This document shows, in pieces, positions 911 to 62,840 of a DNA stretch of 64,000 bases. Position 1 is the first letter of the stretch; every line of letters starts with the position of its first letter. The notes beneath the pieces were generated by a model, which was given only the letters and a program-made list of their open reading frames with translations, ran no database searches and had not been told where the DNA came from. A program made the position numbers and the translations under genes. Origin of the DNA: Tubiluchus corallicola (taxonomy: Eukaryota > Animalia > Priapulida); assembly GCA_030141605.1 (NCBI GenBank), contig JAQGDQ010000089.1, positions 186,001-250,000 of the forward strand. Reading direction: 5' to 3'.

Positions 911-3900
911 ATTTGCTATTTGACCCAATGGATTCAGCCAAGAAGTTACTACGACCACTAGAAAGTGTGCAGGGGTACGATGATGAAATGGACCCTAACG
1001 TAGAAGTCGTCGGGCCTGGAACGTTTGTACCACGAAAGTGTGCGGCAGCAGCTTGGTTATTAGAATCCACAACGATAGCACCAATACCATCGGATGTAAG
1101 TAAGAAAACTGTCCATTGTGCATCAAACAAGAAATGCGTTTAGTTCTGTACTCAACTAATTCCGTTACAACCTCTTATCAAGAAAAGACTTTAACAAGAA
1201 TTGTAACATTAAGAAATCACAAAGTTAAACCTTTATCTGTAAGCAAGAGATGAATATCATAAGGGCTACTTGACTAAACTGTTTGGTATGTAAACACTTG
1301 GTACTTCTGCCTGCTCGCTTTGAGGGAGGACGAAAAAGCACCCAAAAATATTCATAAAAAAATTCAAAAAATCACGTTTGTTTCTTGAAGAACAAGGACA
1401 AAAAAACAAATATATTTTTAACACCCCTCTACTGCTTTGACATCTTTGTTATATTTACTACTTTCTGAATAAAAAGCAGAAAACTGGTCCTTATTAACTA
1501 CATCATAATTTAATAAATCATTACAGTTTATACATACGATATGGTCAAGTATAATCCTACTAATGACTGCAATATTGTTAAGTAAATGAATTCATCATTA
1601 CAGTCTAATTTCTTTAACCACAATTCTGCATTTTACAAGCTAGGATCAGCGCTCAGTGTTAAGAGTCACTAAATGTATATGTTGTGGCGGGACTGGAATC
1701 TAGCAAATTATCAAGGATAATCCTCTATGATCTGACACTGAACCGGCGAAGGTGTGTCAGTCACGTTTGGATGCTATCATGTGTCCACCGATGAATAAAT
1801 GAAGGCCGTGTAACAAATAACACCACCCAGAAGCAGTTTTCCTGGTGCACAGCCACCCATTTCCTGAGTCTATATCACACAACTTTGCAGCCAAACAAAC
1901 ACCCAACTATCTGCCTGATGCCTATAATGTCAAATCTTGTCTTGCAGAAATATACGTACCCGCCTGGATTTATTATTGGAAATGTCTCAACAGAAGAATT
2001 CACTTTTATATATCCGACGAGGGACGCTCCTGCTACAGCTGGTACCACAGGTATGTTTCTCAGCCATCGTGTGACTACCTCTCTTTTGACATGTGGACAA
2101 AATGTACATGACAAAAGAGTAATTTCACCTAATATGCTAATTCTGTTGATTCAATTGGTAAATTCGGTTAACATAGAATTATAAGACGGGCCTAAACCAA
2201 TAAACAAGTTTAGAAATCCCGTGTCCTTTGTATCTTCTTATTCCCCACCAAAAGTGACTAGGAAAGTGAACACCTAAGCACTTTGAATGATGCTGAAAAT
2301 AGGCCTAACCATGAAAAACTGTTTGCCTGTGAAATTGTTGAGCTATTTCATAATGCTAAATGCAACCAAAAGATGACATTCAGTAGCCCCTGGAACTATA
2401 GCAGTTTAGCCTGACTGGCCACCATAAGCTTTTTTAAGAATTTTTTTTCCTTTTTCGAAGTAAATCTGAAAGTAAGGTGGCTTCAAGAACTGCTTTCCGC
2501 ATTTCGGAATGAGTTTTATATGTGTAAATACCGCTTTACCCAAGTTGCATATGATAAAGTTTCTGGGTTCCTTGAGTTTCTAAGGTCTAAAAAGCATTAT
2601 TGTGGAGTAATTGATCTGTAAATTATCTATCTGCACCAGATTAATCGAAGCACAACCTCAAACCTCTTTTGAAGGTTGCAGTGGCCCATACAAAAGCTTG
2701 ATGTGCCTAGGGTGAACTCCTTGATTGTACATGTGATTTTACCTACTTTGTGGGACTATAGGGCTGCTTGTACAACAAAATTAACAGCGATAATTTCAAA
2801 TTTTAAAAAAAAATTAATGTTAATTTCAGTCTGACAGGGTTCCTCCTAAAATGGATGCCCTATGCCACTGCAGGGCATTCTAACAATCCATTCCAGCATT
2901 ATAATTGAGTATAAAATAATGTAAATACACATTTTAAATGCATTCTATAGAGTCATCATATTTTACCACTAATTGACCTACCTGATCAATACAAGCAAAA
3001 CCTCGTAAATGCAGACACATATAATAATAAATTTCAATGCTATAATAGAGCATAAAACTGAATAGATCCACATTTTACTAACAAACTCATTATGTTTTAT
3101 AGTTGCCATCATCATCATCGTTATCTTACTCGTGATTGTCGTCATCTGCATTGCCGTCTATGCATACAAGTCCAATCAGAGCGCCAAAAAGAGGAAGGCA
3201 GAGACCAAAGACCAAGTGCAGGATGAGCAAGAAAAGCAGGCCATGCTGAAACAGAAGACAGCACAGAAACAAGGTTAGTACCTTCAGTCGATGCAGTAAT
3301 TTTCAGTAATTTATTAATAAAATTTGTAAAATAAAAATGACATGCAGCACACTTAAGAAAAGACATGGTTCTTATCCAGACATAACATCTCAATGAATCG
3401 CAACGCCGTTGCTGTAGCAATTTGAGTCGTAATTAGTGGTTTTGGGTACAAATTTTCTCCAAACCTGTCTTGAAGAAGATCTACAACCTAAATTTATTAA
3501 CCTAAATTTATTCAATTCAGAACGGCAAACAAATACTTAAGCAGTGATGGTGAGTACAAAAGATGCCAGATTTCATTACTTAAGATAGTTAATGCACAGC
3601 AGAGATTGCTGACACCGAGGAATGAAGCACTTTTGCAGCTAAGGAGTACAGTCTCATGACTGGACTTTCCCACCAAGTGTTTACAGATGTTGTGTCTAAA
3701 TAAAAGCCATGTCTTTTCTTAAGTGGGTGCTGGCTGTCATTTTTATTTTAAGAATTCGTTTTCCCAATCACCAATCAGTTTCTCAAGTAATAAAATTTGC
3801 TTTGCAAAAACACATTTACGATTTACATCACTAATAAGTTACAAAGAAATTTGCAACATGCTTATTGCTAACATTTGCTTAAAGATAGTATGTTGCAACA

Positions 3901-9900: not shown

Positions 9901-12900
9901 GATAGAGCCAAAAGCAACCTTGTCGAGTTATTCGTCGTTGGTTTACTCTTCTCCTAATATGCCAAATTGGTATTAAAATAGACTGTTTCTCGCACGGAGT
10001 TCCACATCAGGAGACTCAAAGGAGATCCAGATATTGCATAATTATGCTCTTGCTGAATAGTCGGATTGAATTTGGATCTAACATTGTGTACATATGATCT
10101 ACAGGCTGTGCAAGTAGCATGTACGCATGCTATTAGCAAAATTAAAAATTAGTGTAGCCAGCAAGGCACGAAATCTTCCTGATCCTCTGATTTTTGGACT
10201 GTATTGGACAAATACGGCACACCCGCTGCACCGCACTGTTAACGAGAGCTTGTCTTTTGCAAAATAGTAATGTGATTTTGATCTGTTTTGTTGGTTCTGA
10301 AATGAACAATTGACGGAACAGTTTGGAATGAAAGCAAGCTGAACCACACTAAACTATTACAAACAAGGCATAATCAGTAAGCCTAGAGTCTCTATAACTC
10401 TATCTGTTGTGAACAGAAAGCCTTCACTATTTGATTCATGCTCCAAAGTCGTTTATTCTAAACAGAATAATAAAAAGAACATTAACAAGTAAGAAAATGA
10501 ATAAAATGATAAACTGAAGCTCAGTAAATACAAAGAAGTCAACTTATTGGCAAAGTACTTTCTCAAACTTGAGAGATTGAATTCACAACTTAATTAAATT
10601 ATTCAAATTGATGTAACTCACATCGTTGGCTCTTCGTCAAGATTTAAAATTTCTCAAGGTACAAAATTCGGTTATGACTAAACGATGTTATTAAATGTAA
10701 CACAATAACGACAAAAACATTGCTGTGATAAAAAAAACACGACCACCATTGTTCCCCTCCTGTCCTTTCCTCCTCACTCGTAGAGGGCAGCACCTTCCAA
10801 TACATAGGTGTCGTTATGCATATTGCCGTTACACTCCCCCTCTAAAATGCGAAGTCACAAAGCATTTTACCAAAAATTTCCAGTAAGCAGTTAGTCGGCA
10901 CCCTCTAGAAGACAGAGCTTGTGAATGGGGCGCTCTAAAAATCCAGCTTTCACTTTAAGTGTAGCACTTCTCACTAACCCATCTTCGCCTACATGAACTT
11001 GCTCTACCTTGCCCAGTGGCCACAGATTTCTGGGTGTGGTCTCCTTCACAAGCACCACATCATTGACTTTGAGATTTCTTTTTGGCACAGTCCACTTGTT
11101 CCGTTGCTGTAAGGATGACAAGTACTCTCTGGTCCATCTGCTCCAAAAGACATTCACTAAGTGTTGAATGTGTCGCCACTTGCGTCTGTAACGATCAGAC
11201 TCAGAAAACACTCCTCGTGGCAGTGAGGCAGCATTGTGAGCTAAAAGCAGATGATTTGGTGTCAATGGTTCTGCATCCTTTGGATCATCTGAAATCGGCG
11301 TTAACGGCCTTCCATTAATTATTGCCTCCGTTAAACAGAATACAGTGGATAATCCTTCATCATCAAGGGTCTGTCCATCTAAAAGGTGGACCAATATCCT
11401 TCTGACTGATCTTATCATCCTTTCCCAACAACCTCCCATGTGTGAAGCAGCTGGTGGATTGTACTCCCACTCTATGTTACGTTGATGTAGCTGACTAGTG
11501 ATGTTCTGATGGTTCCAGCCTAACATAGCTTTTTGAAGCTCCCTGTCTGCTCCAACTATGTTTGTCCCATGGTCCGACCTGATCACATTTGGCTTTCCCC
11601 TCTTGCTAATAAATCGGAAGAGGGCATTAACAAAGTTATCAGTGGTCATGTCAAAAAGAACTTCTAGATGAATAGATCGCACTGCCATGCACGTAAATAA
11701 ACATCCATATCTCTTAGCAGATGTGCGCCCTCTCTTTACACAAAAGGGCCCAAAACAATCTACCCCCACTGAGGAGAATACTGAATCTCTTGAAATCCTA
11801 TCGCTGGGTAAGTCAGCCATCTTTTGGCCCAGCGTGGGTGCATACAAATGTCTGCACCTGCGACAGTCCTTTATAGCCTTTCTTGCGATAGTTCTCAGTC
11901 CAATGATCCAAAACTTGCCTCTGACTACAGACATAGTGTAATTGCATCCAGCATGGCAGTTTTCCTCATGGTAGTGTCGGACAACTAGGCGAGAAAAAAC
12001 ATGGTCTTTTGGCAGTATTATTGGGTGCTTAGCTTGTTTAGCTAAAGGAGCTTTGGCTAGTCTGCCTCCAACTACCAATATGCCTTTATCTGATTTCTGA
12101 GGGTCCAATTGATACAAATGACTGGTTTTGAGTACATTCTGTCCCGTGAGCTCTTCTTTGAAGTGTATGTACTGCACATGTCTAATGATTTCTTCCTCAG
12201 CCTCCATTAGTTCCTTCAAAGAAAGGGCAGTGTGCTTTGACATAGTACGGACCCTCTTAAGTACTTTGTCTCTCAACAATCGTTTCAGACGTAGGAGATA
12301 AGCTACACATCTTTTTAGCCGATGCAGATTTGAATAATGCTCACACAACATGTCGATGACATTATCATCCTTTTCTACTGCTTTAGACGTGTAGACCACC
12401 ATAGGACTTTTCTTAATTTCGGAATCATCTGAGACATCTTTGCCTTTGATACTATCACCGATCTTTGGCCATTGCTCTCGCTTGCCTTTCAGAAATGTGG
12501 GGCCATTTATCCACCTGCTTTCCTTCACCAGATCTAATGCTGCAATTCCCCTTGTTGCATCATCTGCTGGATTGTCTGCTCCTGGTAGGTGATGCCATTG
12601 TTGTGGTGAAGTTAGTTCCTGAATGACAGCCAAACGATTGGCAACAAAGGTTTTATACCTTGCAACTTCATTATTCAAGTAGCCTAATACTATTGAGCTG
12701 TCCGTCCAGAATATGGATTCATCAATGTGCATGTTAAATTCCTGTCGTAATATGTGATCTACTCTAGCTGATAGCATGGCTGCAGAAAGCTCCAGTCTGG
12801 GAATTGTCATACCCCTCATAGGTGCCAAGCGTGATTTGCCCAAGATGAAGGAGACATGTACTTTTCCATCGTTGTTCTCGAATCGCACGTAGGACACTGT

Positions 12901-15900
12901 TCCAAAGGCAACTTCTGATGCATCACTAAAATGATGCAATTGAGTGTTATTTACGGTCCCAAAATGCTCTGGTTTCAAGCAACGAGCTACCATCATGTTT
13001 TCCAGTGTCATAAGCTCTTCTTGCCAAACTTTCCATTTTCTGGCAGTGTGCTCTTCCAGGGGTTCATCCCATGCCTTTCTTAGGCGGGTTTCTTCCTGGA
13101 ACATAAGCTTGGCACGTAGAACAAAAGGAGAAATTATGCCTGCAGGATCATAAACTGATGACACCACACTTAGTAGGCCACGGCGAGTCAATGGTTTTTG
13201 TCTTTGGTTTACATGGATTTTGAACTGATCAATTTCCATGTCCCAGAAAATTCCTAAGGCCCTTTCTACTGGCAAAGTATGTGCTTCTAGATCCAGATTC
13301 TTAACACCTTTGCCCCGCTCCTCTTCTGGGATGGACTCAAGGACACTTCTACTGTTGCTGCACCACTTAGTTAAACGAAAGCCACCTCGAGCCAATAGAT
13401 CAGTCAGTTTTTGACGCATGTGCTTGGCTTTCTCTTCATTTACAGTTGAGGTTAGGCAATCGTCAACATAGAAGTCTTTCAGCAGTGTCTGAATTATGTT
13501 TTCATCATACAAATGCCGGTTATGCTTTGCAACGCTTTGGAGTGCAAAGGCTGCAACACTTGGACACCATATTCCACCGAATGTGTGAACAGTCATTCTG
13601 TAGACCTTTGGTTCCGTGTTTAAACAACCATTTTCCCACCATAAAAATCTAAGGACATCGCGATCCTCTGCAGGCACCTTCACTTGGTGAAACATGCATT
13701 CAATATCAGCCATCAAAGCTATTTGGTTTTCTCTAAATCTAAGCAAAACACCGATCAGTTTATTTGTTAAAACAGGACCCTGCATAACGTTCCTATTTAG
13801 AGTAGTACCTGCGAATTGAACTGCACAATTAAAGACGATTCTCGTTTTATCTGGTTTGTTTGTATTTCTGACTGCAAAATGGGGCAAATACCATATCTTT
13901 CCAGGTCTTCCATTAACACCTTTGGCATTTATTTCCTCAGCATAACCCTTATTCAGCATATTTGAGATTTCTGCAGTATACTTCTCTAGCAATGCATTGT
14001 CCCTTTGTAACTTGTTCTTGAGCCCCTGCAGCATAGACTGTACCACAGGTAAATTGTTTGGAAGCTCAGGATTCTCACTTCGGAATGGTATGGGCAATTG
14101 ATAGTGATTATCCTCAGTTAGGGTTACTGAATCCTCCCACAATTTGATCACCTTGACATCTTCTTTGGAATAATGATTTTCGTCTTCACACATTTCCATC
14201 TGCCAAAACTGGGCGACAATGCTGTCAAGATCTGCAGTGGCTTGGACATAGTTACTGATGATTGCTTTGCTGCTTGTGTACCCTATTGGCCCATTAAGAG
14301 CCCACCCTAGTATAGTCCTGGATGCCCAAGGAGCTCCTCGTGGCCCTGTTCTGACCTCTAATGGAATCATCGCGATAGGCACATCCTGACCAATCAAAAG
14401 CCCCACTTCAGGTTCTCCAAAACCGCCAGAGGTCAATGGTATGTCCTGCAAGTGTGGCCATTTTTTTAGGTCTTTCAATTCTGGCAGAGTTTCTCCCTTT
14501 AATCTTAGTGAAGGTCTGGTGTACACTTCAGGAAGCGTTATGCATTCATCTTTTTCCATGCTCATCACTTGCAAACTCACCACCTTGGCTGTAAATTCGC
14601 TATTTTCCCTTTCCAAAGTAGTCAGTGATAAGGCAACATCCTTTCCATCTACGCCCAATTTAGCGGCTAGCTCCTCAGTGCAAAATGTATTTGTGCTACC
14701 TGAATCCAAGAAAGCCAGAGTCTCGAGTGGCATTCTTTGTTTTTGAGATTGTACAAGAACCTTTACAACGGGTAAAATAATCCTTTTGCGCACTGTATAT
14801 CTTTCAACATAACCATTTTGGACAGAACACTTGCTGCTAGCTTCTCTCATATCGCTATCTTCATCATCCTGCCTGCCTTGCTTAAATTTACTCAGGTGTA
14901 AGAAAGTGGAATGGCTTCTTTGACAGACATTGCATCTTTTGCTCATACGACACTCATAGCTGCTATGATTGGGCTTTAAACATTTAAAGCAAAGTCTCTT
15001 CTCTCTGGCTAGCTCCAGTCTTTCTTCAGGCTTCATGGCATTAAAGTCTGCACATTCAGTTATAAAGTGTTCACCAGTGCAAATGCTACACGTAGATCTC
15101 TTCGATTCGCCTGCTATTTTAGATAAAAAACTTGTTTGGTAACTTGCTTTAGCATCCTTTCTTGTTGTGAGTTTCTGGGTTTCCTTTCTTTCTCGGTCGA
15201 TATATCCTAAATTCCCAAAAACTGGATCATTTGCCTCTAAAGCTGCTGTTTCCACAAAATGAACTACATCATCAATCGTTGGACTCCTTTCTTGGCTCAT
15301 TCTAATTTTATATGCCTCTGTCTTCCACCTTGTTTGGAGATAAATTGGGAGTTTCTCAAGTATACACAAAAGATTTGTTTGGTTATTTATTTCTTCTCTT
15401 TTGTTAATACTGGCCAGTATTCCTTGAGCCATTCTCAAGTCATCTGCAAAATGCATTAATTCTTCTCGGCCCTTAACAGCCTTCGTTTCTCTAATCTGTG
15501 TTAGCCAAGATTCAACTATGTTGTAAGAATTCCCAAACCGCTCATAAAGCATCTTCTTCGCCTTTGCGTAGGCCTCATTAGGAGGCATGAGCAAGCAGCT
15601 TTCCACCACCTTTCTTGCTCTTCCTGTACAATAATGTAGTAAGCGCAGAAGATTGGCATGACTATCTACAGAAACTCTCTCTACTGCATGTTCAAAAGTC
15701 TTCATAAACAGATGAAACTTTAATGGGTCTCCATCAAAATACATCATCTCCACCTTAGGCAAGCTTGCACTTTCAGAATTTATTTGCCGACTTATTTCTC
15801 CTGTGTGTGTTTTGTTTCCTTCGCTGTGAGCATGACATACATCGTCACATCTATTGTCACAACCACAACATCGTGTTGAGATTGGTGCACTTCCTTGAGA

Positions 15901-18900
15901 TGAATGATTTGGCTGTCTCACTGCTTCTTCACACATTTCAACCCACCGCTTTGTCTCATCCCTTTTATATGCAAGCAAAGATGGGAGTTCCTTCTTTTCT
16001 TCTTCTTCTACTTTCTCATCGACTTCAAACTTGGCGAGCACCCTTTCTTCAGCTTCCAGCATTTTAATTTCAGCTTGTTCTTCCAATTCGCTCATTTTCA
16101 TTTGATACAATCGCTGCTCCTTTTCTGCCTTTGCTCTTCTCTGATATTCACAAAGCTCAAGGTTTCTCATCTTTTCCATGATGGATGCCTTTGCTTGTAA
16201 AGCGGCTCTTTTTGCTGCTACCATGGCCCGTGCACTGGCAACACTGCTTACGCTTTTATAGCTGAGCTTTCCGCTACTCCCAGCAATGGAATGGTTGTCT
16301 TTACTATGTGACTGGTCGTGTTCATCCTGGATGGGTTTTAGACAAGAATTTATTTTTGCGTGCATTTCATTAACGTTTCCCATGACAAATTTATATCCCT
16401 CTCGCATCTTAGCAATCTCATCAGGGGTTCCATTACATTCCCTAACAGCTGCGTAACAATCTTCAAAGGAATTTTTGTAGTCTGTAACGATATTTTCTAA
16501 TTCAGCTTGCTTTAAAAGGAGCTCATCTTGCTTCCATTCTTGTAGATTTTTCATCAAGTAATTTATCTTTTTTGTTAATCGACCCTGCTGTGTACTTAGT
16601 CTTCTTTTGCATTCCTGTAAATATGCTGGGCAATCGTCACCCCCTAATGTTTGCTCCTTGTCGCCTTGTTCAACTGACTTTTCGAAGCCAATTGCCTCGG
16701 CTGAGAGATCAGTTTTTGGCTTGAAGAGATCCTTTTCCATATTTTGTCTGTTGACGTTGTGCACTTAAAACCTGCTCATTCTGCTTTGTTACCAAGCAAC
16801 ATTAACATAAGCTATATGATACACACTACATAAGCATTAAAAATTACAATCCTATTGTACTTAAATGTACATGTATCATTCTAAAGCTATAGTTGCTATT
16901 TGTACTTAAAACTTATCAGACGCTTAAAATGAGGCATAAATCCTAAGTTTCACCAAAGTTATTCAAACTGTCATTAAATACCCGGATTCTACGTGCCGGT
17001 AAACATACAAACATACAGACACCGTGTATCAGCAAACCTATGGCCTTAATATGTAGACAAGAACTTTACCACAGATCTCACACTTTAACATAAATCGTGG
17101 CTTGGTATAGCAGCAGTTCACTTACCATGTATTAATGTTATACCGATTAAAGAAAACGTAATTATTAAATTAAACCCCATATTGCAAATTAGTTCAACAT
17201 TCAACCATGCTTTCTGTTGAGCTTTCACAGGCTTAGGATAATGCTTGATTACGCATTGTAGATTATGTTGGGTAACTTAGTAGATTTTCGAATTTTTTAA
17301 GCAGGTACAGCACGGTGTAAATTTTGTCAAAATGAGCAGTCGATTCAGAGTTGTTCACTGAAAACATTTGACACAACGCAAACATTGCATAATATCATAT
17401 TTTCGAACTTCAATAAACTGTACACAATAAGTACCATATCTTTAACTTGCTTCGATTAGATCAGCTGATGCACGGCAGCGTGGGAGTTTACTACTTGGCT
17501 GGATTCCAGCAGGTCTGTTTACATTCGCCGTATCTGTTGCGGTTCATGTTACTAGTTCCCAGGGCTCCTTAGTTGAAGCTGTATATCATTGGAAGACAAT
17601 CGCGTGCGCTGTAGCTCGATGAAGGTTCACTGGGAGTCAGGTTCGCCCAGAGTACGTTTCTTCCTGACCTCTGCAAGGTCGCCTGCGTCACAGGCTTGTG
17701 TTCGATATTGATTGGTTGCTCGCTGCACGGCATTCACTACATTTACTACGTCGCACCGGTGTGTAAGATGCTGATTGGCTGTTCGTCTGGACAGTGAAGC
17801 AGGTTACTAGGACTGCCTGTAAAATGTTGCTGGAAGAGTAATTTTCAAGGCTTAGACAGCTTTTTACTGACGATTATTGTCTTTTCAGGCAATGATCTAT
17901 TGTCCAAAATTATGCCACCAGGTTCTCTGGTATCTGGCCTCCTCGTCGACTATAATACTGTTTCTCGTAACACTGGCATAACAAATAGATTTATTCGCAA
18001 ATAATGATAGAATATTGAAGTGTACTACAGCCATGGTGGAAGAGCCGATAATAAACTGTTGTGAACAGAAAGCCTTCACTATTTGATTCATGCTCCAAAG
18101 TCGTTTATTCTAAACAGAATAATAAAAAGAACATTAACAAGTAAGAAAATGAATAAAATGATAAACTGAAGCTCAGTAAATACAAAGAAGTCAACTTATT
18201 GGCAAAGTACTTTCTCAAACTTGAGAGATTGAATTCACAACTTAATTAAATTACTTAAATTGATGTAACTCACATCGTTGGCTCTTCGTCAAGATTTAAA
18301 ATTTCTCAAGGTACAAAATTCGGTTATGACTAAACGATGTTATTAAATGTAACACAATAACGACAAAAACATTGCTGTGATAAAAAAAACACGACCACCA
18401 TTGTTCCCCTCCTGTCCTTTCCTCCTCACTCGTAGAGGGCACCACCTTCCAATACATAGGTGTCGTTATGCATATTGCCGTTACACTATCTCTATGGTAA
18501 AAATATTTTGTCGTGTAAGCATGCAGCTTGCAATTGTCCCACTTTGTCCCATAATCCCATTCCTTGTTTTATAAGGCCGTTTTGTAATTATAACTTGATA
18601 TTCTCATGCTTATAAAATTTAAGTCTAATAGTTATTGTACATTGTACATTTAGCAGACCGTCAACTTAGTGATTCTTCAGAAACCCTTTCTTCAACTTCT
18701 TCTTCATCACATGATGAGACGAAGCCAGTCATCCATCACGCAGAAGTTGAGAATGACCAGGATCCACCTGAAGATTTGGAATGGGACCCAACTGACAGTA
18801 CAGAATTACTAAATGTAAAGTTTAAAAATTCATGCTATTATTATAATATTCTATTGCTAAGCATGTTATAATAAGAAATATTTGGTATAATAATTTAGAT

Positions 18901-41600: not shown

Positions 41601-44600
41601 GTCCTTTGTAGAATACGATTTCTTTTGATTAAAGTTTTTTCATTTTTTATTTTGGTTCTGAAGTTTTTTTTTCTGGAGAGTGTAAGGCTTGTACTAAATG
41701 TTTGCTCAATTTGCCATGTGAATTTACAGTGTTTTGCACAAATAGAAAAACTTGTTTATTTCAGCTTTTCTTCAGGCACAAAGTTTCTCCTTTTCGGAAA
41801 ACATGGTTCTTGAGTGGCTTTAGCAAAAGAAAGTTAAATTAAATTTGTTTATTTTGGTAAGGTTGTTTTAACCGATAGACAACTATAAGAAAGGGTTTAG
41901 AAATCCAAAATATGTGGAATTAAAAACGAAAACCTGTATCTTCACAATTAATAGATGAAATTTACTTCCCAAGTTATTTTCCTAACACAGTTTATTGATT
42001 TTTTATGATTCTGTGTTTTCTGCTTACCAGTGACATAGCAGTCTTTATAACTTCTAAGTTTGCTATTTATGCTGATAATATCGGTTTCTGTAATGCTTTC
42101 CTCACTGGATAACTTCCGATTAGGAGCATCCGTTTGAATAGGGGTGGACCTGAGATTATCTTATTATACAACACAACTCATTCTATAATGTTTGTCTTAA
42201 CAAATCCACTGTACAGCCTTGTATGAAGTACAACAGCTAGATTAGCTTGTTGTATAAGGAAAAAAGATGAACTTGTAACTTTCCCTCATCATTGCAAGGC
42301 ATGTCTGGTGTACATATAGGTGTTTTGTCTTCTGATCTGTGATATTTCCTTGTGCACACATGATAGATAGGGAAAGTATTCTACTCTAAGAACATAAAAA
42401 AGTTCAAGCTTGTATTGTATTGGAAAATATTTAAGTCCTTACTTTATAATCTGTGTTTTTATAAATCAACTGCAACTTTATGTAAACTACAACAGTTATA
42501 ACTTGTTGACCCATTTGACAGATTATGAAAATCATCAGCACAATCACGTTATGAATTCATTTGGGTCTAATTTGGTGTCAGTGTTGCATTCTCTTGCTGA
42601 TCAAAACAGCCATACGTTGTTATATTATGCATTTTTTATTGATATTTCTGAATGCATACAGTTCACTTTCTCACCTGGATTTTGTCTAGATGTAGAACAG
42701 CTACGCATGAATTCAGTTTTTTCTTTGTGCTTCTCATTTGTCAAATTTTTACCAGAAAATTGTTTCCTTGTTAAGTACAACCTTATTTTCTTCAAAAAGA
42801 ACAAAAGCAAATGCCTCCCATTGATGTCTGGTTCTCATTTGTTTGAGAAAATTTGCATTAAAAAACTGGCGATTTGTAAACATGACCAAAATTACATTGT
42901 AAAGTTGAATGTTCTACTTTAAGGAAACTTTATTGTAAAAACTAACCTGCATGCTACATGTAAGATGGTTTTGTTGTTATGTAGTTCCAGCAATGCCAAC
43001 ATTGACAGTTTTGGGAAGAAACGAGTCGCACGTGAACATCTCTTGGTTTTCTCCTCAGCAAAGAGATCGTCAGGCAGCATCCATTTTCTATGTAAAGTAT
43101 CGTCGTTACGGACAAGAGCAGTGGCACAGTACTGTAGATGAAGTTATTAATGAGTGGATTACAGTATCGGATCTTGAACCGGGAACGTCGTACCAGATGA
43201 GTGTAATAGCGGTAAATGACGAGTTCGAATCAGGAAGTGCACCTATAGACGTATGGACTCAAGGTTCAAGTGAGTAGCGATTTCTTTTGCTGATACGTAA
43301 TTTGTTTTCTTGTGATCAATTAAGAGAAGTTTTGTATGACTTTTTTTCAAGTACACATCAACAATCTTAAATGCACATAATTTATTATTGTATTTGCTGG
43401 CACGTTTGTTTATGTTAGTGAAACATGATATGCAATTTCTTTTTAATATATTGACAATGTTAAAACATCTATATTAACATTGTTTGGGATGCTTATAAAG
43501 TTTCGTATAATGATTTTCAACTTTTGGGCTAACAAACTGGTGTCATTACTGCAATCAATACTAATGTTAGAGAAAGCAAACTTCTGACTTATAGTTTTAA
43601 TAATTGTTATGTTTATTAACAGAAATATGATAAGATAATAAATCTTGAATCTCAAGTTATGTTATGTTATGTTATGTTATGTTATGTTATGTTATGTTAT
43701 GTTATGTTATGTTATGTTATGTTATGTTATGTTATGTTATGTTAGTAACAACTGCTCGAGTTGTATTTGCTTTGGTTTTTTTACCCAAGTTTGGCGTGAT
43801 TCTTCAAAATCGAGTAATGTACCATTTCGACGTAATATATATTATCTTCATTTATAAAATATTTACCATGTCATATTTTAAAATTTTTCTTGTCATACCT
43901 TTGCATCGCTTGTAATTTTTGAAATTATTAATAAAATGTACAAAAACCTACATCTGTGTGATATTTAAATCAATACAAGAGGTAGGTAGGTGGTGGCCAT
44001 ATGATAATGCCATCATAATGCAAGGTAGGTAGGTCATCCAAATCGTCCGAATGCTTGATATCATTATATGTGGATAACCTTTACGTGTCGTTTACAGAAG
44101 AGCTGTTATTGTACATTCTAAGCTTAATTAAATGTTTTGCAGGAAGTGAGATCGGTGATGATTCAGCAGTCGCATCAGCCGGATGGTTTGTGGGAATGAT
44201 GATCGCACTGGTGCTTCTGATCTGTATTGCTGTGTTGGTTTGTCTGGTGAAGAGATGGAGGGATAGTCATTATCACGGTGAGTAATGCATTAAGCAAGAT
44301 AGATTACAGAAAGTTTGAGCAAATTTGTAATACAGTAGGTGCCGATTAATAGACTCACTTTGCGATGGAAGAGTTTTGACCCAATTATCTGACTGAATCT
44401 GTTAGCCGATTGTATGTAGTATAACTAATGTAGATGAACGAGTCATCACTCCTCACTTTCATATGCACTGCAGAGGCTGCGAGAGCTTTATATATTGGCA
44501 GGTTTTTATGCTTATGCTCCATTTTTCAATGTTAACTCTTGCTTTTAGTTCCTCTATGATGCTTACACTTGTAAAGTCACAAGGAATACTGGCATATTAC

Positions 44601-47600
44601 TGCCGCTGCATCAGTGGCATAACAGCAACAGGTAACTGATTAAAAATTCTGTGAAAAGAGCTTCAGAAGGAAACTGCTAGGCATGTAATTAAAAGTTTAG
44701 CTTCATAAATTCCTGTACAACAAGGTTAATTGCAGCGGATGAGCAGTTGACATATTCGAAGCAAAAACATGTTACTAGCATATCAGTGATGTCAATTCTC
44801 GACAGTTTTTATATACATTTGAATAGGAGTGGTTTGTTTCAGACGTTTTTCAGTCAATTAGGCGTCTGATTCTATTAACCCTCAGTCTGTTAAACAGCAC
44901 CCACCGTATTGTGATACACCAGTGTGGTGTAATAGACTCAGCTAAGAAAATATTCTGCATGGTATTTGTAGTCCTTGAATATGTTATCCTATGCCACATG
45001 TTATTTATGTTATTATGAAAAATCCAAAGCTTCGGGGAAAGTCTCTTCTGATGTTTTATATTTCTGTCTTTACGGTCACATTTAGTTTTAAAAGCTTAAT
45101 AATTGTTGGTTTGTTTCATTACCATAACAAGTGTTACCTAGCCTAAATGTGGGCTGCCTGTGACTTCTGTGGTACATTGTAACCATTTGTATTAGGTTTC
45201 CTGAAACACTAATTATGTATGTTTACCTTATATTGGTTTCTTGTTGCTGTAGATTTTTTTCTAGTTTAATAATGTACATTATTGTTGAAGTGCCGTATTT
45301 GTACAGTCTGCTGACATTGTCCCAAGCTTTAGCTTTTTTCGTTTTTAATTTAGTCTTTTTATTTTAAATTTTTATTTTTTATTGGTTTTCCAACATTAAA
45401 TTACTAGTCTTTTGCTTATTTAAATTTATGATTTTGTTTACATTTTTGTATACCTAACATGTTTACAATGAATGTGTTTTTTTACGTGCAGGCGTCCCAG
45501 ATTCAGACCCCGATGATACAAACTGGTCAAATAAGGGATTGGGTAACATGCGTATGTGTTACATATGTGTTTTTACTGGGCTTAGACAAATTTCATTCTT
45601 TTTCTATTAGGCAAAGACTGGCTTCATTTAGACATTGATAGTTTCCTTGGCTGTTATTTTTGTGGTGTTTTGCCTTTCTGTTTGTCTAGGTTGTCTTGGT
45701 TAGTTATTGAATTTAATAAATCTCTAAGCTCTGTTTGCTGGTACATATGTAAATGCACGCTTTTGTTGCACTGTCCCAAGTAACTGCACATTGATGGAAG
45801 GTTTGAAATTTCACTGTTTTTTTATAGTAGATTGTCTTTTACTAACATTTGTTCGTGAATCAGTTCATAATTGAGGTTAACTCCTGTTCAGTTTTGTCTT
45901 TCGTTATACTGGTTTAGTATTGCATCTTGGTAAATCTGTACGGCACTGCCCTCTTAATAACAGAACAAGTATATCTTTTGAGGCAACACAAATATGTCAA
46001 AAGTAGTCTTGAAGCATAGGATTACTTGTTTCCTTTTTGAAGTACTACCATGGCATAATATTCTTGTGACATGGTAGCAGTTTCTTAACTTCTCTACAAG
46101 CCAAGCTACAGCCATTTTTCAAAATTAGCTGTTGTAAAAATTGAGCGATGGTCGCAGATGCACACACTTATGTTTTTCTCGAATGTGTTTGTAAAATGTA
46201 CGAACTTCAGTAACACACTGTTTCAGATGATTTCACCATTTCCTTCAAGCCATTCATTTCTTCTGCAGTGGTACTCTATTGTGATATCACAATGTAAAAA
46301 ACACTCCATACCACCCACACCATGCCACAAGACAACAGCAACTATAAAAACATTTTATACAATGTTGAAACTGCATGACGAATGCTAATAAATCTATCCA
46401 TTGATGATCAATAATGCGCAAAGATTTTACATAATATTTGCTTTCTTCTCCTGAAATTATGGTAATAAAACAGCTGTTAAAATACACACATTTACAGTTG
46501 CCTTGAATCTAAATTTCTGTGAAAGTTTAGCGATGCATTGGTTGTCTCACAATGAGTAAATGACAGAGTTTTGTATTACATGAAAAATGAAAATGAAACT
46601 GGCATCGTGGCAAATGCCTATTTATAGAGGTTATTTTTTATAAAGGCTACATTGCAAGCAAGTAACCCAGAAATAAAAAGGATGTTGACTGGACTTCTAT
46701 GATTGTTAGGTACCATGCTTGGACTTCCACAATTGTTAAGGTACCATAACTGGACTTTCGTGACTGTTAAGGTATCATGACTGGAACTTTGTGATAGCTA
46801 AGGTATCACTACTGGACTTCCATTATTGTTAAGATACCTTTACTGAACTTCCAAGATTGTTAAGATACCTTTACTGGACTTCCAAGATTGCTAAAGTAAT
46901 ATGAGGGCATCCATGACTGTTTAGGTAGCATGACCAAAATTCCATAATTGTTAAGGTACTATGACTGGACTTCAATGTTTGTTGAGGTACTATGAGGGCT
47001 TCCATGATTTTTAAGGTACCATGATAGGACTTTCGTGATTGTTAAGGTACCATGACTGGACTTTCATGATTGTTAAGGTACCATGTCTGGACTTCCATGA
47101 TTGTTAAGGTACCATGACTGGATTTCCATGTTTGTTAAAGCACCATGAGTAGACCATCCATGATACATATAGCAATGGATAGACATCATGTTTTAAATTC
47201 CCAGCTCTTGAGTGTTCTGTTTCGAATTTAAACTTTGCTCGTGAGCAGTGTCACATACAAGTCTCAATATCCGGTTTACCAGTTAAATGTATTTCTTGGC
47301 ATCTCCATCTCTTTGCTTGTCATTACTACTTAAGTATAAGGCTGCTTAAGTATTTGTCTGATAATTGTTGCTGTCTGGTTTGTCCAGCTTATTATGTAAT
47401 TTACTGCTCAATTTTTCACAGATTTCTTTGAACTGTTAGGATCAGAGATTGATCCATTGATTGATTTTTATAATATTGCAGGTATTCTTGATTGGAACAA
47501 AATTCTGTCGCAGTCAAAGTTAATACATGCTGATCTAGTGATGTTTATTTGCCAAATGTTCTGTATGTGTGGCTTATGTTGACGAATCATCTTTGTGAAC

Positions 47601-56687: not shown

Positions 56688-56898
56688 GTAAGTTGTGTAA
56701 TTATAGACATTTTATAACATAACTTATAATGGTTTAAGTTTGCATTGTGCCAGCCCTGAACGAACTATCTACAGTACTATATAGTACTCTGACTCTTGAG
56801 CAATAGCGTAGCTTGGTGAAGATATTATGCAATGTTCTTTGTTTTCATAAGAGTTTTTTCCTGTTTGTCTTTGGGACAGAATAGTGTTGAATAGTGCA

Positions 56899-57392
56899 GT
56901 TATTTTTGTGGAACCTACAAAATGTGGGATTGTTGATTTAACCTGTTAAAACACCGTCCCTGCAAACTTTTTAACAAGCCTCATTATTAGTTACTTTTTG
57001 CTTTTCTAAAAGTAAATAATATTTAAAATTGCATTTGTGAACACAATCTAGTATTCATAATTTCGTTTGAATTGATTTCATAATTTTCTTACTTCCAGAG
57101 ATCTGCTCAACTTCCTACTGTGTAACTAGCATTGTGTTATGTGATGTTATTTTTGTGGAACCTACAAAATGTGGGATTGTTGATTTAACCTGTTAAAACA
57201 CCGTTCCTGCAAACTTTTTAACAAGCCTCATTATTAGTTACTTAATGTTTTTTTAAAAGTAAATAATATTTAAAATTGCATTTGTGAACACAATCTAGTA
57301 TTCATAATTTCGTTTGAATTGATTTCATAATTTTCTTACTTCCAGAGATCTGCTCAACTTCCTACTGTGTAACTAGCGTTGTGTTATGTGAT
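56899..57392. repeat. Recent 247-bp tandem duplication (2 copies)
   Basis: 56899-57145 and 57146-57392 are nearly identical, with only a handful of differences. Confidence 0.92.
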
Positions 57393-61957: not shown

Positions 61958-62840
61958 AATAGTAATTTATTCATTTTTGAAATCTTCAGATCATAGGATT
62001 TTCTTAAGTGAAGTAGCTATTTGTGTTCAGGCCTTCTATAATAGCCTAATGGATTTTGGTAATTTTTCAAAATCGCTTCTGGGTTAAACTGATGGTCTGT
62101 TTGTAATAATTTTTTTCTTGTATTATAGGACCCCTCAAAGGCTCAAACATACACAACAACCGTTTACAACTGGAAAACTGTATTTATACAGATGATGTAG
62201 TTTATTTAGAAAATTGAAAGTATTACAACGAAAGTAGAAGCTGTAGTAGACAGTAATTTTCCCAGTTTGCCCTTAATTCGTAATCATTTTCATGTAGCCG
62301 AAAAATGCCAATTTTTTCTATGGAATCAATGTGACTCCGCTTTTCAGTGTCGAGCGAGGATCTTGGATCAGGGAACGACTAGCCGGTCTATTGTCACATT
62401 TGTCAGGACTTATTGTCCAGCGGATCTTTATCAGGGTATTTCCGCAAGTTCTGTTCCGGTCATCTTATATTAGAGATTTTCTACAGTTCTTTTGCGTTAA
62501 GCAACCTTCCTTTAATCAACTCCTCGACTGCGTTTTATCACACAAAGCTTAAAAAGTTTCATCCGGTGGTAAATTGTAATGCTTTCAGTTTTCTAAATAA
62601 ACTGCACCATATGTGTAAAATACAGTTTTCCAATTGTAAACGGTCGTTGCGTATGATTAAGTGAAGCCTACTATATAAATAGTCGAAGGAATCCATTATT
62701 ACAAACATCTGTCCATCCGTTTAATGCAGAAGTAATTATGGAAAATTACCAAAACACATTAGGCAATAGAAAGCCTGAGCAATACAGCAGCCATTTCACC
62801 AAAGGAAATCCTACTCTCTGAAAATTTCAAAAATGAATGT
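61958..62840. repeat. Diverged inverted repeat pair (~270-bp arms, ~350-bp spacer)
   Basis: The reverse complement of ~61958-62228 aligns by eye with ~62575-62840. Shared blocks: TGTAAT.CTTTCA.TTTTCTAAATAAACT, TACAGTTTTCCA.TTGTAAACGGT, TTATTACAAACA, AAAATTACCAAAA, TTTCAAAAATGAAT. Confidence 0.7.

Follow-up and report, generated by a model that had tools for sequence, protein, structure and literature searches.

Tf1 of Schizosaccharomyces pombe is described, in the passages of one report that deal with priming, as a self-priming retrotransposon using 11 bases and an RNase H cut (PMC7175516). For tRNA-primed elements, the same passages state that the primer templates the plus-strand copy of the primer site (PMC7175516). 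Self-priming has also been predicted from LTR-to-site complementarity in the plant lineages Tcn1 (gypsy) and TAR/Houba/Osr-1 (copia), as far as the relevant part of that survey goes (PMC6317226). Belpaoviridae carry, according to the ICTV, an 18-nt primer site complementary to tRNA-Arg or tRNA-Gly; BEL/Pao replication is poorly understood and tRNA-primed by description (PMC8742986). A literature search, with subscription journals, Repbase and supplements outside its range, found no report of BEL/Pao self-priming or of an intron-split primer.

The window analysed here is a 64,000-nt stretch of a contig from the priapulid Tubiluchus corallicola. It harbors an element of 8.1 kb on the minus strand (18485-10405) which, judged by its sequence, is a complete, intact and young BEL/Pao retrotransposon, the assignment being made at family level. 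Its features, in the sense of the element, are:

18486 to 18490, minus strand: target site duplication, upstream copy, 5 nt
18057 to 18485, minus strand: 5' LTR, TG...CA, 429 nt
18280 to 18287, minus strand: second-helix arm in exon 1, pairing with post-LTR nucleotides 11/12-18 behind a 3-nt bulge
18274 to 18277, minus strand: last 4 nt of exon 1, 5' part of the predicted primer core
18110 to 18273, minus strand: predicted GT-AG intron in the 5' LTR, 164 nt, formed by the best donor and the best acceptor of the LTR
18103 to 18109, minus strand: first 7 nt of exon 2, 3' part of the predicted primer, overlapping an AATAAA poly(A) hexamer
18057 to 18102, minus strand: 46 nt that, by their coordinates, would template strong-stop DNA in a cis model
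18039 to 18056, minus strand: putative non-tRNA primer binding site, core 18056-18046
10891 to 16764, minus strand: single gag-pol ORF, 1957 aa stop to stop, first ATG at 16740
10834 to 10843, minus strand: polypurine tract (PPT), 10 nt, adjoining the 3' LTR
10405 to 10833, minus strand: 3' LTR, 429 nt, 99.3% identity with the 5' LTR
10458 to 10621, minus strand: intron copy in the 3' LTR
10400 to 10404, minus strand: target site duplication, downstream copy, 5 nt

The two 429-nt LTR copies differ by 3 mismatches. Because a G also follows the 3' LTR, the LTR end was set by the TG...CA termini and the target site duplication. The gag-pol product contains two zinc knuckles, a DSG protease motif, the YVDD of a reverse transcriptase, the DAS of an RNase H (residue 1273), an HHCC motif and a DDE-type integrase, the catalytic motifs following the order PR-RT-RH-IN. 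Peptidase_A17 (E 5e-44), DUF1759 and DUF5641 were matched above the Pfam cutoff; Integrase_H2C2 was matched as well, and RVT_1 below its curated cutoff. Homologues of the protein number 4,885 at E<=1e-50. The best of them share 45-51% identity across residues 850-1500, and their named sources are echinoderms, molluscs, a priapulid, a nemertean, a soft coral, a crab and a fish. LTR size (0.2-1.2 kb), TG...CA ends, target duplication, PPT, domains and the PR-RT-RH-IN order all agree with BEL/Pao, whereas a primer site complementary to the 3' end of tRNA-Arg or tRNA-Gly is lacking. Because membership rests on the protein, this lack is best read as a departure inside BEL/Pao.

One contig of run X1 joins both flanks (10399-18486) without the element and represents an empty allele; the insertion may be polymorphic, and the element-free junction fits a recent insertion. 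At 10577-10853 (part of the LTR U3) and at 15286-16393 (part of gag), summed contig depth in run X1 exceeds the depth over most of the element by a factor of 10-170, an excess hinting at many related LTRs or an unrelated repeat. The leader upstream of gag-pol (18034-16740, minus strand) spans 1.3 kb and contains 29 upstream ATGs. The first, 22 nt past the LTR end, has a strong Kozak context; the 45-aa ORF that starts there has no Pfam match. The leader also holds a strong donor (8/9) at 17125, and the mRNA may therefore arise by further splicing. Six small ORFs had no Pfam match, and a PDB sequence search returned no match. Repeats elsewhere in the window, outside the BEL/Pao element, are a 31-nt tandem array (46703-47169), a 247-nt tandem duplication (56894-57387), a 5-nt microsatellite (43639-43754) and two inverted-arm sets (61969-62838 and 3350-3725). 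The inverted-arm sets may be DNA-transposon remnants.

The original prediction held that this 5' LTR contains an intron whose removal creates the primer. Its coordinates for the donor, the acceptor, the post-LTR site and the 3' LTR copy of the intron were all correct on re-examination, and no TGG follows the window 5' LTR, as it had stated. The donor (18274/18273), described there as consensus, is the top donor-consensus match within the LTR (7/9), and the acceptor (18110/18109), described as pyrimidine-rich, has the most pyrimidine-rich tract (17/20). The predicted junction is located 212 nt into the LTR. Both LTRs keep the intron, as claimed, with the 3' LTR copy at 10621-10458. A variant at 10463 in 4 contigs of run X1 lies within the acceptor pyrimidine tract and raises its pyrimidine content. 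A 163-nt skip in run X1 (10735 to 10899) is not the intron. Contigs of run X1, which is of unrecorded kind, and of run X2, which is RNA only by guess and contributed 2 records, neither on an LTR, showed no joint at the intron, a result that speaks neither for nor against splicing.

The post-LTR sequence 18056-18046 is the exact complement of the predicted junction over 11 contiguous nt, of which exon 1 supplies 4 and exon 2 supplies 7. Unspliced RNA matches over at most 7 nt when the match has to begin at the first post-LTR base; both lengths are those given originally. The LTR offers 361 GT-AG pairs, and the one with the best consensus also pairs best (11 nt; runner-up 9). With donor and acceptor fixed, a single one of 127,960 window 20-mers (both strands) reaches 11 nt, and this is the real site. 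If any GT-AG pair is permitted, 3 of 7,171 internal 20-mers do so; a lax search found one other 11-nt chance match, off the LTR end (donor 18238, acceptor 17829, target 17201). Allowing one 3-nt bulge, the junction pairing extends to 18 nt, and the minimum-energy fold favours a register of 10 + bulge + 8. This longer duplex, also part of the original prediction, can form in the window, where its second-helix arm ranks 0.04 against swaps. Folding of spliced and unspliced model RNAs, which had been proposed as a check, agreed with the prediction: with four assumed starts, site nucleotides 1-10 pair with the junction at P of at least 0.98 in spliced and at most 0.08 in unspliced RNA. The duplex energy in the window is -21.7 versus -14.7 and -4.8 kcal/mol.

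Relatives were collected from metagenome contigs scanned with a 50-protein alignment, and the best 80 of 542 confirmed stretches were taken. Enough upstream DNA was present at 48 of these 80 loci (too little at 32), which formed 42 families at 85% identity. A search of viral contigs for relatives found none. A split match was called in 21 families and an intron-less one in 6, these calls being selected on the match and hence partly circular (swap controls gave 2-13% positives). In the remaining 15 the LTR start was not found in a 5' copy, which made them unreadable. The intron-less families (L002, L003, L023, L031, L065, L013) carry the complement in one piece. A 10-nt unspliced match in L009 was discarded because the upstream DNA belongs to another source than its element. 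Most relatives are collapsed metagenome contigs, and in three of them donor and acceptor come from different LTR copies. The statistics on 27 families include the window and leave out L013.

Split and intron-less families share 40-53% identity with the RT-RH region of the window element. The match spans the junction in the split families and is located at, or 2-5 nt after, the LTR end. The perfect core measures 10-16 nt across the 27 families (11 nt in 14 of them), with 4-7 nt contributed by exon 2, and a core of 10-12 nt is the conserved unit. The second helix is only weakly common to the relatives (7/27 in the best tenth, p 0.04, in a test inflated by cores longer than 10 nt); the predicted 18-nt duplex is sound in the window and weak as a feature of the families at large. 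The helix starts directly after the terminal ACA in 14 of the 27 families and behind a spacer of 2-6 nt in the rest; the claim that the duplex ends at the first post-LTR base is exact for those 14 families, the window among them, and not for the others. Where a second LTR fixes the LTR end, the site begins 0-3 nt after it in 7/7 elements (window 0, L013 3, L018 3, L031 0, L045 2, L054 0 and L059 3 nt). The first bases of the site are GT in 24 and AT in 3 of the 27 families, and TGG at the LTR end occurs in none of the 27 sites (window and 26 relatives).

Site sequences are specific to the families. The 27 families contain 26 distinct 10-mers, differing at 5.2 positions on average, and perfect matches across families number 2 of 702. 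Because the sequence differs in this way, the paired stretch is neither a tRNA site nor an accident of the poly(A) signal. Donors have G at +5 in 21/22 and A at +4 in 17/22, strong donors being partly a search condition; a YTRAY branch motif was found in 8/22. In swap controls requiring at least 10 nt within 6 nt of the ACA, 14 of 43 own combinations were positive versus 76 of 1,806 swapped ones, and at 11 nt the counts were 10/43 versus 32/1,806. Laxer sites with at least 11 nt gave 21/43 versus 230/1,806, and unspliced 11-nt matches 5/43 versus 37/1,806. Position-blind best matches fell exactly after the ACA in 9/25, versus a background of 2%. Without any splice-site prior, an AG precedes the longest match to the site start in 13/22. 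The co-variation check suggested with the original prediction thus found 21 further families with a junction-spanning match, family-specific sequence and consensus splice sites, clearly above the swap controls. The split match behind the putative primer site is real and widespread in this BEL/Pao branch.

The intron is kept in 22 of the 28 readable families. On a quick tree, which lacks L059, L062 and the loci with fewer than 300 aligned residues and leaves L013 unlabelled, the intron-less families require 5 changes, no fewer than shuffled labels (154/500 as low), and are therefore scattered. This scatter fits repeated loss through copying of a spliced 3' end, the direction of change not being proven. 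Two further observations were made by eye. A T-starting spacer between LTR end and primer site tends to go with a stretch ending in A that separates the G-rich tract from the 3' LTR (L018, L023, L045, L046, L059), which suggests that the cDNA ends are trimmed by integrase. Three related loci (L012 at about 125, L024 at about 58, L027 at about 17) show a GT-starting site after ACA and a short spacer; the LTR part expected to hold the primer was not found in their contigs. In L048 (128-165), the first 10 nt of the primer site are present twice, 27 nt apart. Poly(A) tails were not found in the loci.

Taken as a whole, the element, devoid of a tRNA-type primer site, likely primes minus-strand DNA from its own spliced LTR RNA (4 + 7 nt). 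Host splicing likely builds this RNA primer, because in the element and the 21 split families 10-16 post-LTR bases match only the predicted junction. The spliceosome would remove the predicted 164-nt LTR intron and join the 4 + 7 nt, and the junction would fold in cis onto the post-LTR site. Cleavage 3' of 18103 would free a 3'-OH, the enzyme being the RNase H of the element if the analogy to Tf1 applies. The reverse transcriptase would then copy about 46 nt and jump to the RNA 3' end; with the poly(A) signal in exon 2, this end would lie beyond the cut site. A new copy would inherit the intron only if the jump lands on an unspliced 3' LTR, in the same RNA or in a co-packaged partner, and intron-less families would result from an occasional jump to a spliced 3' end. 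If the primer serves as template for the plus-strand copy of the site, any change in the junction would pass to the site directly, no second mutation being needed. Such templating would account for the close co-variation, and would in turn presuppose that the junction exists as RNA.

In 17 of 21 families, against an expectation of 3.3, a poly(A) hexamer follows the primer and precedes the LTR end, which gives the overlap needed for strand transfer. The window hexamer starts at base 1 of exon 2, so that poly(A) factors could compete with the acceptor; in most relatives it is positioned further downstream than the start of exon 2. Measured in 15 families, the junction lies at a depth of 126-748 nt within the LTR; a search of 15 families for a consistent TATA or Inr, or for a promoter motif in common, found none. 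With the window junction at a depth of 212 nt and no consistent TATA or Inr, there is no ground for placing the primer at the RNA 5' end, where it lies in Tf1. It appears reasonably probable, with somewhat less assurance than for the single element, that a broad animal BEL/Pao lineage uses the host spliceosome to make its reverse transcription primer, each cycle combining a spliced 5' end with an unspliced 3' end. Replication would then be gated by splicing, because the primer would exist only at the LTR exon-exon junction. The original claim that the primer arises only after splicing is supported in the split families; for the clade as a whole splicing is dispensable, since the complement is already present in one piece in 6 families.

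The poly(A) signal follows the intron, and the intron of the 3' LTR is therefore transcribed and open to splicing. A last intron, here the 3' LTR copy, would normally be spliced. The cis model alone leaves the retention of the intron in the 22 families unexplained. Retention without selective splicing is accounted for if the spliced primer acts in trans, either as a short spliced LTR RNA (from a solo LTR, the 3' LTR or a prematurely polyadenylated 5' LTR) or as a spliced partner, together with an unspliced genomic RNA. This possible arrangement, held tentatively, shares the main claim that splicing builds the primer and differs in geometry, primer and template being separate molecules. In its favour, such short RNAs would result from the poly(A) signal in exon 2, the fold of unspliced RNA leaves the site free of pairing with the junction halves, and in the run X1 contigs the depth over the LTR is far greater than over the internal region, as summed contig depth and not as copy number. 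Any spliced full-length RNA is, however, predicted to close the helix on itself (P of at least 0.98), and the intron-less families would form an identical cis helix. A spliced trans primer with an unspliced template fits equally well as the cis version.

The remaining explanations are much less likely than a splice-built primer acting in cis or in trans. A helix of regulatory function, for instance hiding the poly(A) signal of the 5' LTR or serving packaging or translation while priming proceeds by other means, is improbable: the hexamer lies within the helix in the window, L001 and L036, yet elsewhere it is found 11-217 nt after the acceptor or not at all. The helix, moreover, always starts 0-6 nt from the LTR end, with GT or AT in 27/27 families and no tRNA site. 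Priming by a host tRNA fragment or another small RNA, with the LTR match being secondary, is very improbable, although the ICTV gives tRNA-Arg or tRNA-Gly priming for the family (PMC8742986) and half-tRNA priming is reported for copia lineages in part of the plant survey (PMC6317226). The 27 sites without TGG and the 26 different 10-mers, each fitting its own LTR, speak against it, as do the lack of an Rfam match in the element and of a tRNA gene in the window. Chance, with AATAAA a mere poly(A) signal, described as a conserved LTR motif in the pertinent part of one study (PMC3601003), and the splice-like sites AT-rich noise, is already largely refuted and hardly credible: in spite of the one 11-nt chance match elsewhere in the element, exon 2 opens with the hexamer in only 3/22 split families while the junction pairs in 22/22, and the swap, 20-mer, GT-AG-pair and no-splice-prior controls all speak against it.

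Splice-assembled self-priming, a variant of the Tf1 mechanism, is consequently the most likely mechanism. If true, it provides a testable priming model for a large part of BEL/Pao and extends self-priming to a third LTR superfamily. A retroelement primer would be made by pre-mRNA splicing and transposition would be tied to splicing, the puzzle being one intron removed at one RNA end and kept at the other. Annotation tools requiring a tRNA primer site would under-call such elements.

Belpaoviridae as delimited by the ICTV resemble the window element in being animal LTR elements with a single gag-pol ORF, the order PR-RT-RH-IN, a PPT and LTRs of 0.2-1.2 kb (PMC8742986). Unlike them, the window element and its readable relatives have no tRNA-type site. 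Tcn1 and TAR/Houba/Osr-1 are not BEL/Pao, and the passages on these lineages mention no intron-split primer (PMC6317226). Closest are Tf1/Tf2 and the Tf1/sushi group of Ty3/gypsy, which according to the priming passages likewise lack a tRNA site, carry about 11 nt of their own LTR RNA complementary to the post-LTR sequence and need a cut (PMC7175516). The Tf1 primer is described there as one uninterrupted stretch, the initial 11 nt of the RNA, whereas that of the window is split by a predicted GT-AG intron. A U5 stem reportedly adjoins the primer duplex in Tf1/sushi elements. A stem between post-primer sequence and LTR end is predicted in the window's fold; a shared one was not detected across the 27 BEL/Pao families (1/27 in an 18 x 18 nt swap test). 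The core lengths agree, with 11 nt in the window after predicted splicing, a mode of 11 nt in the 27 families and the 11 nt described for Tf1. Tf1/sushi elements belong to Ty3/gypsy and the window element to BEL/Pao by its domains; it would hence work like Tf1 and not be a member of that group.
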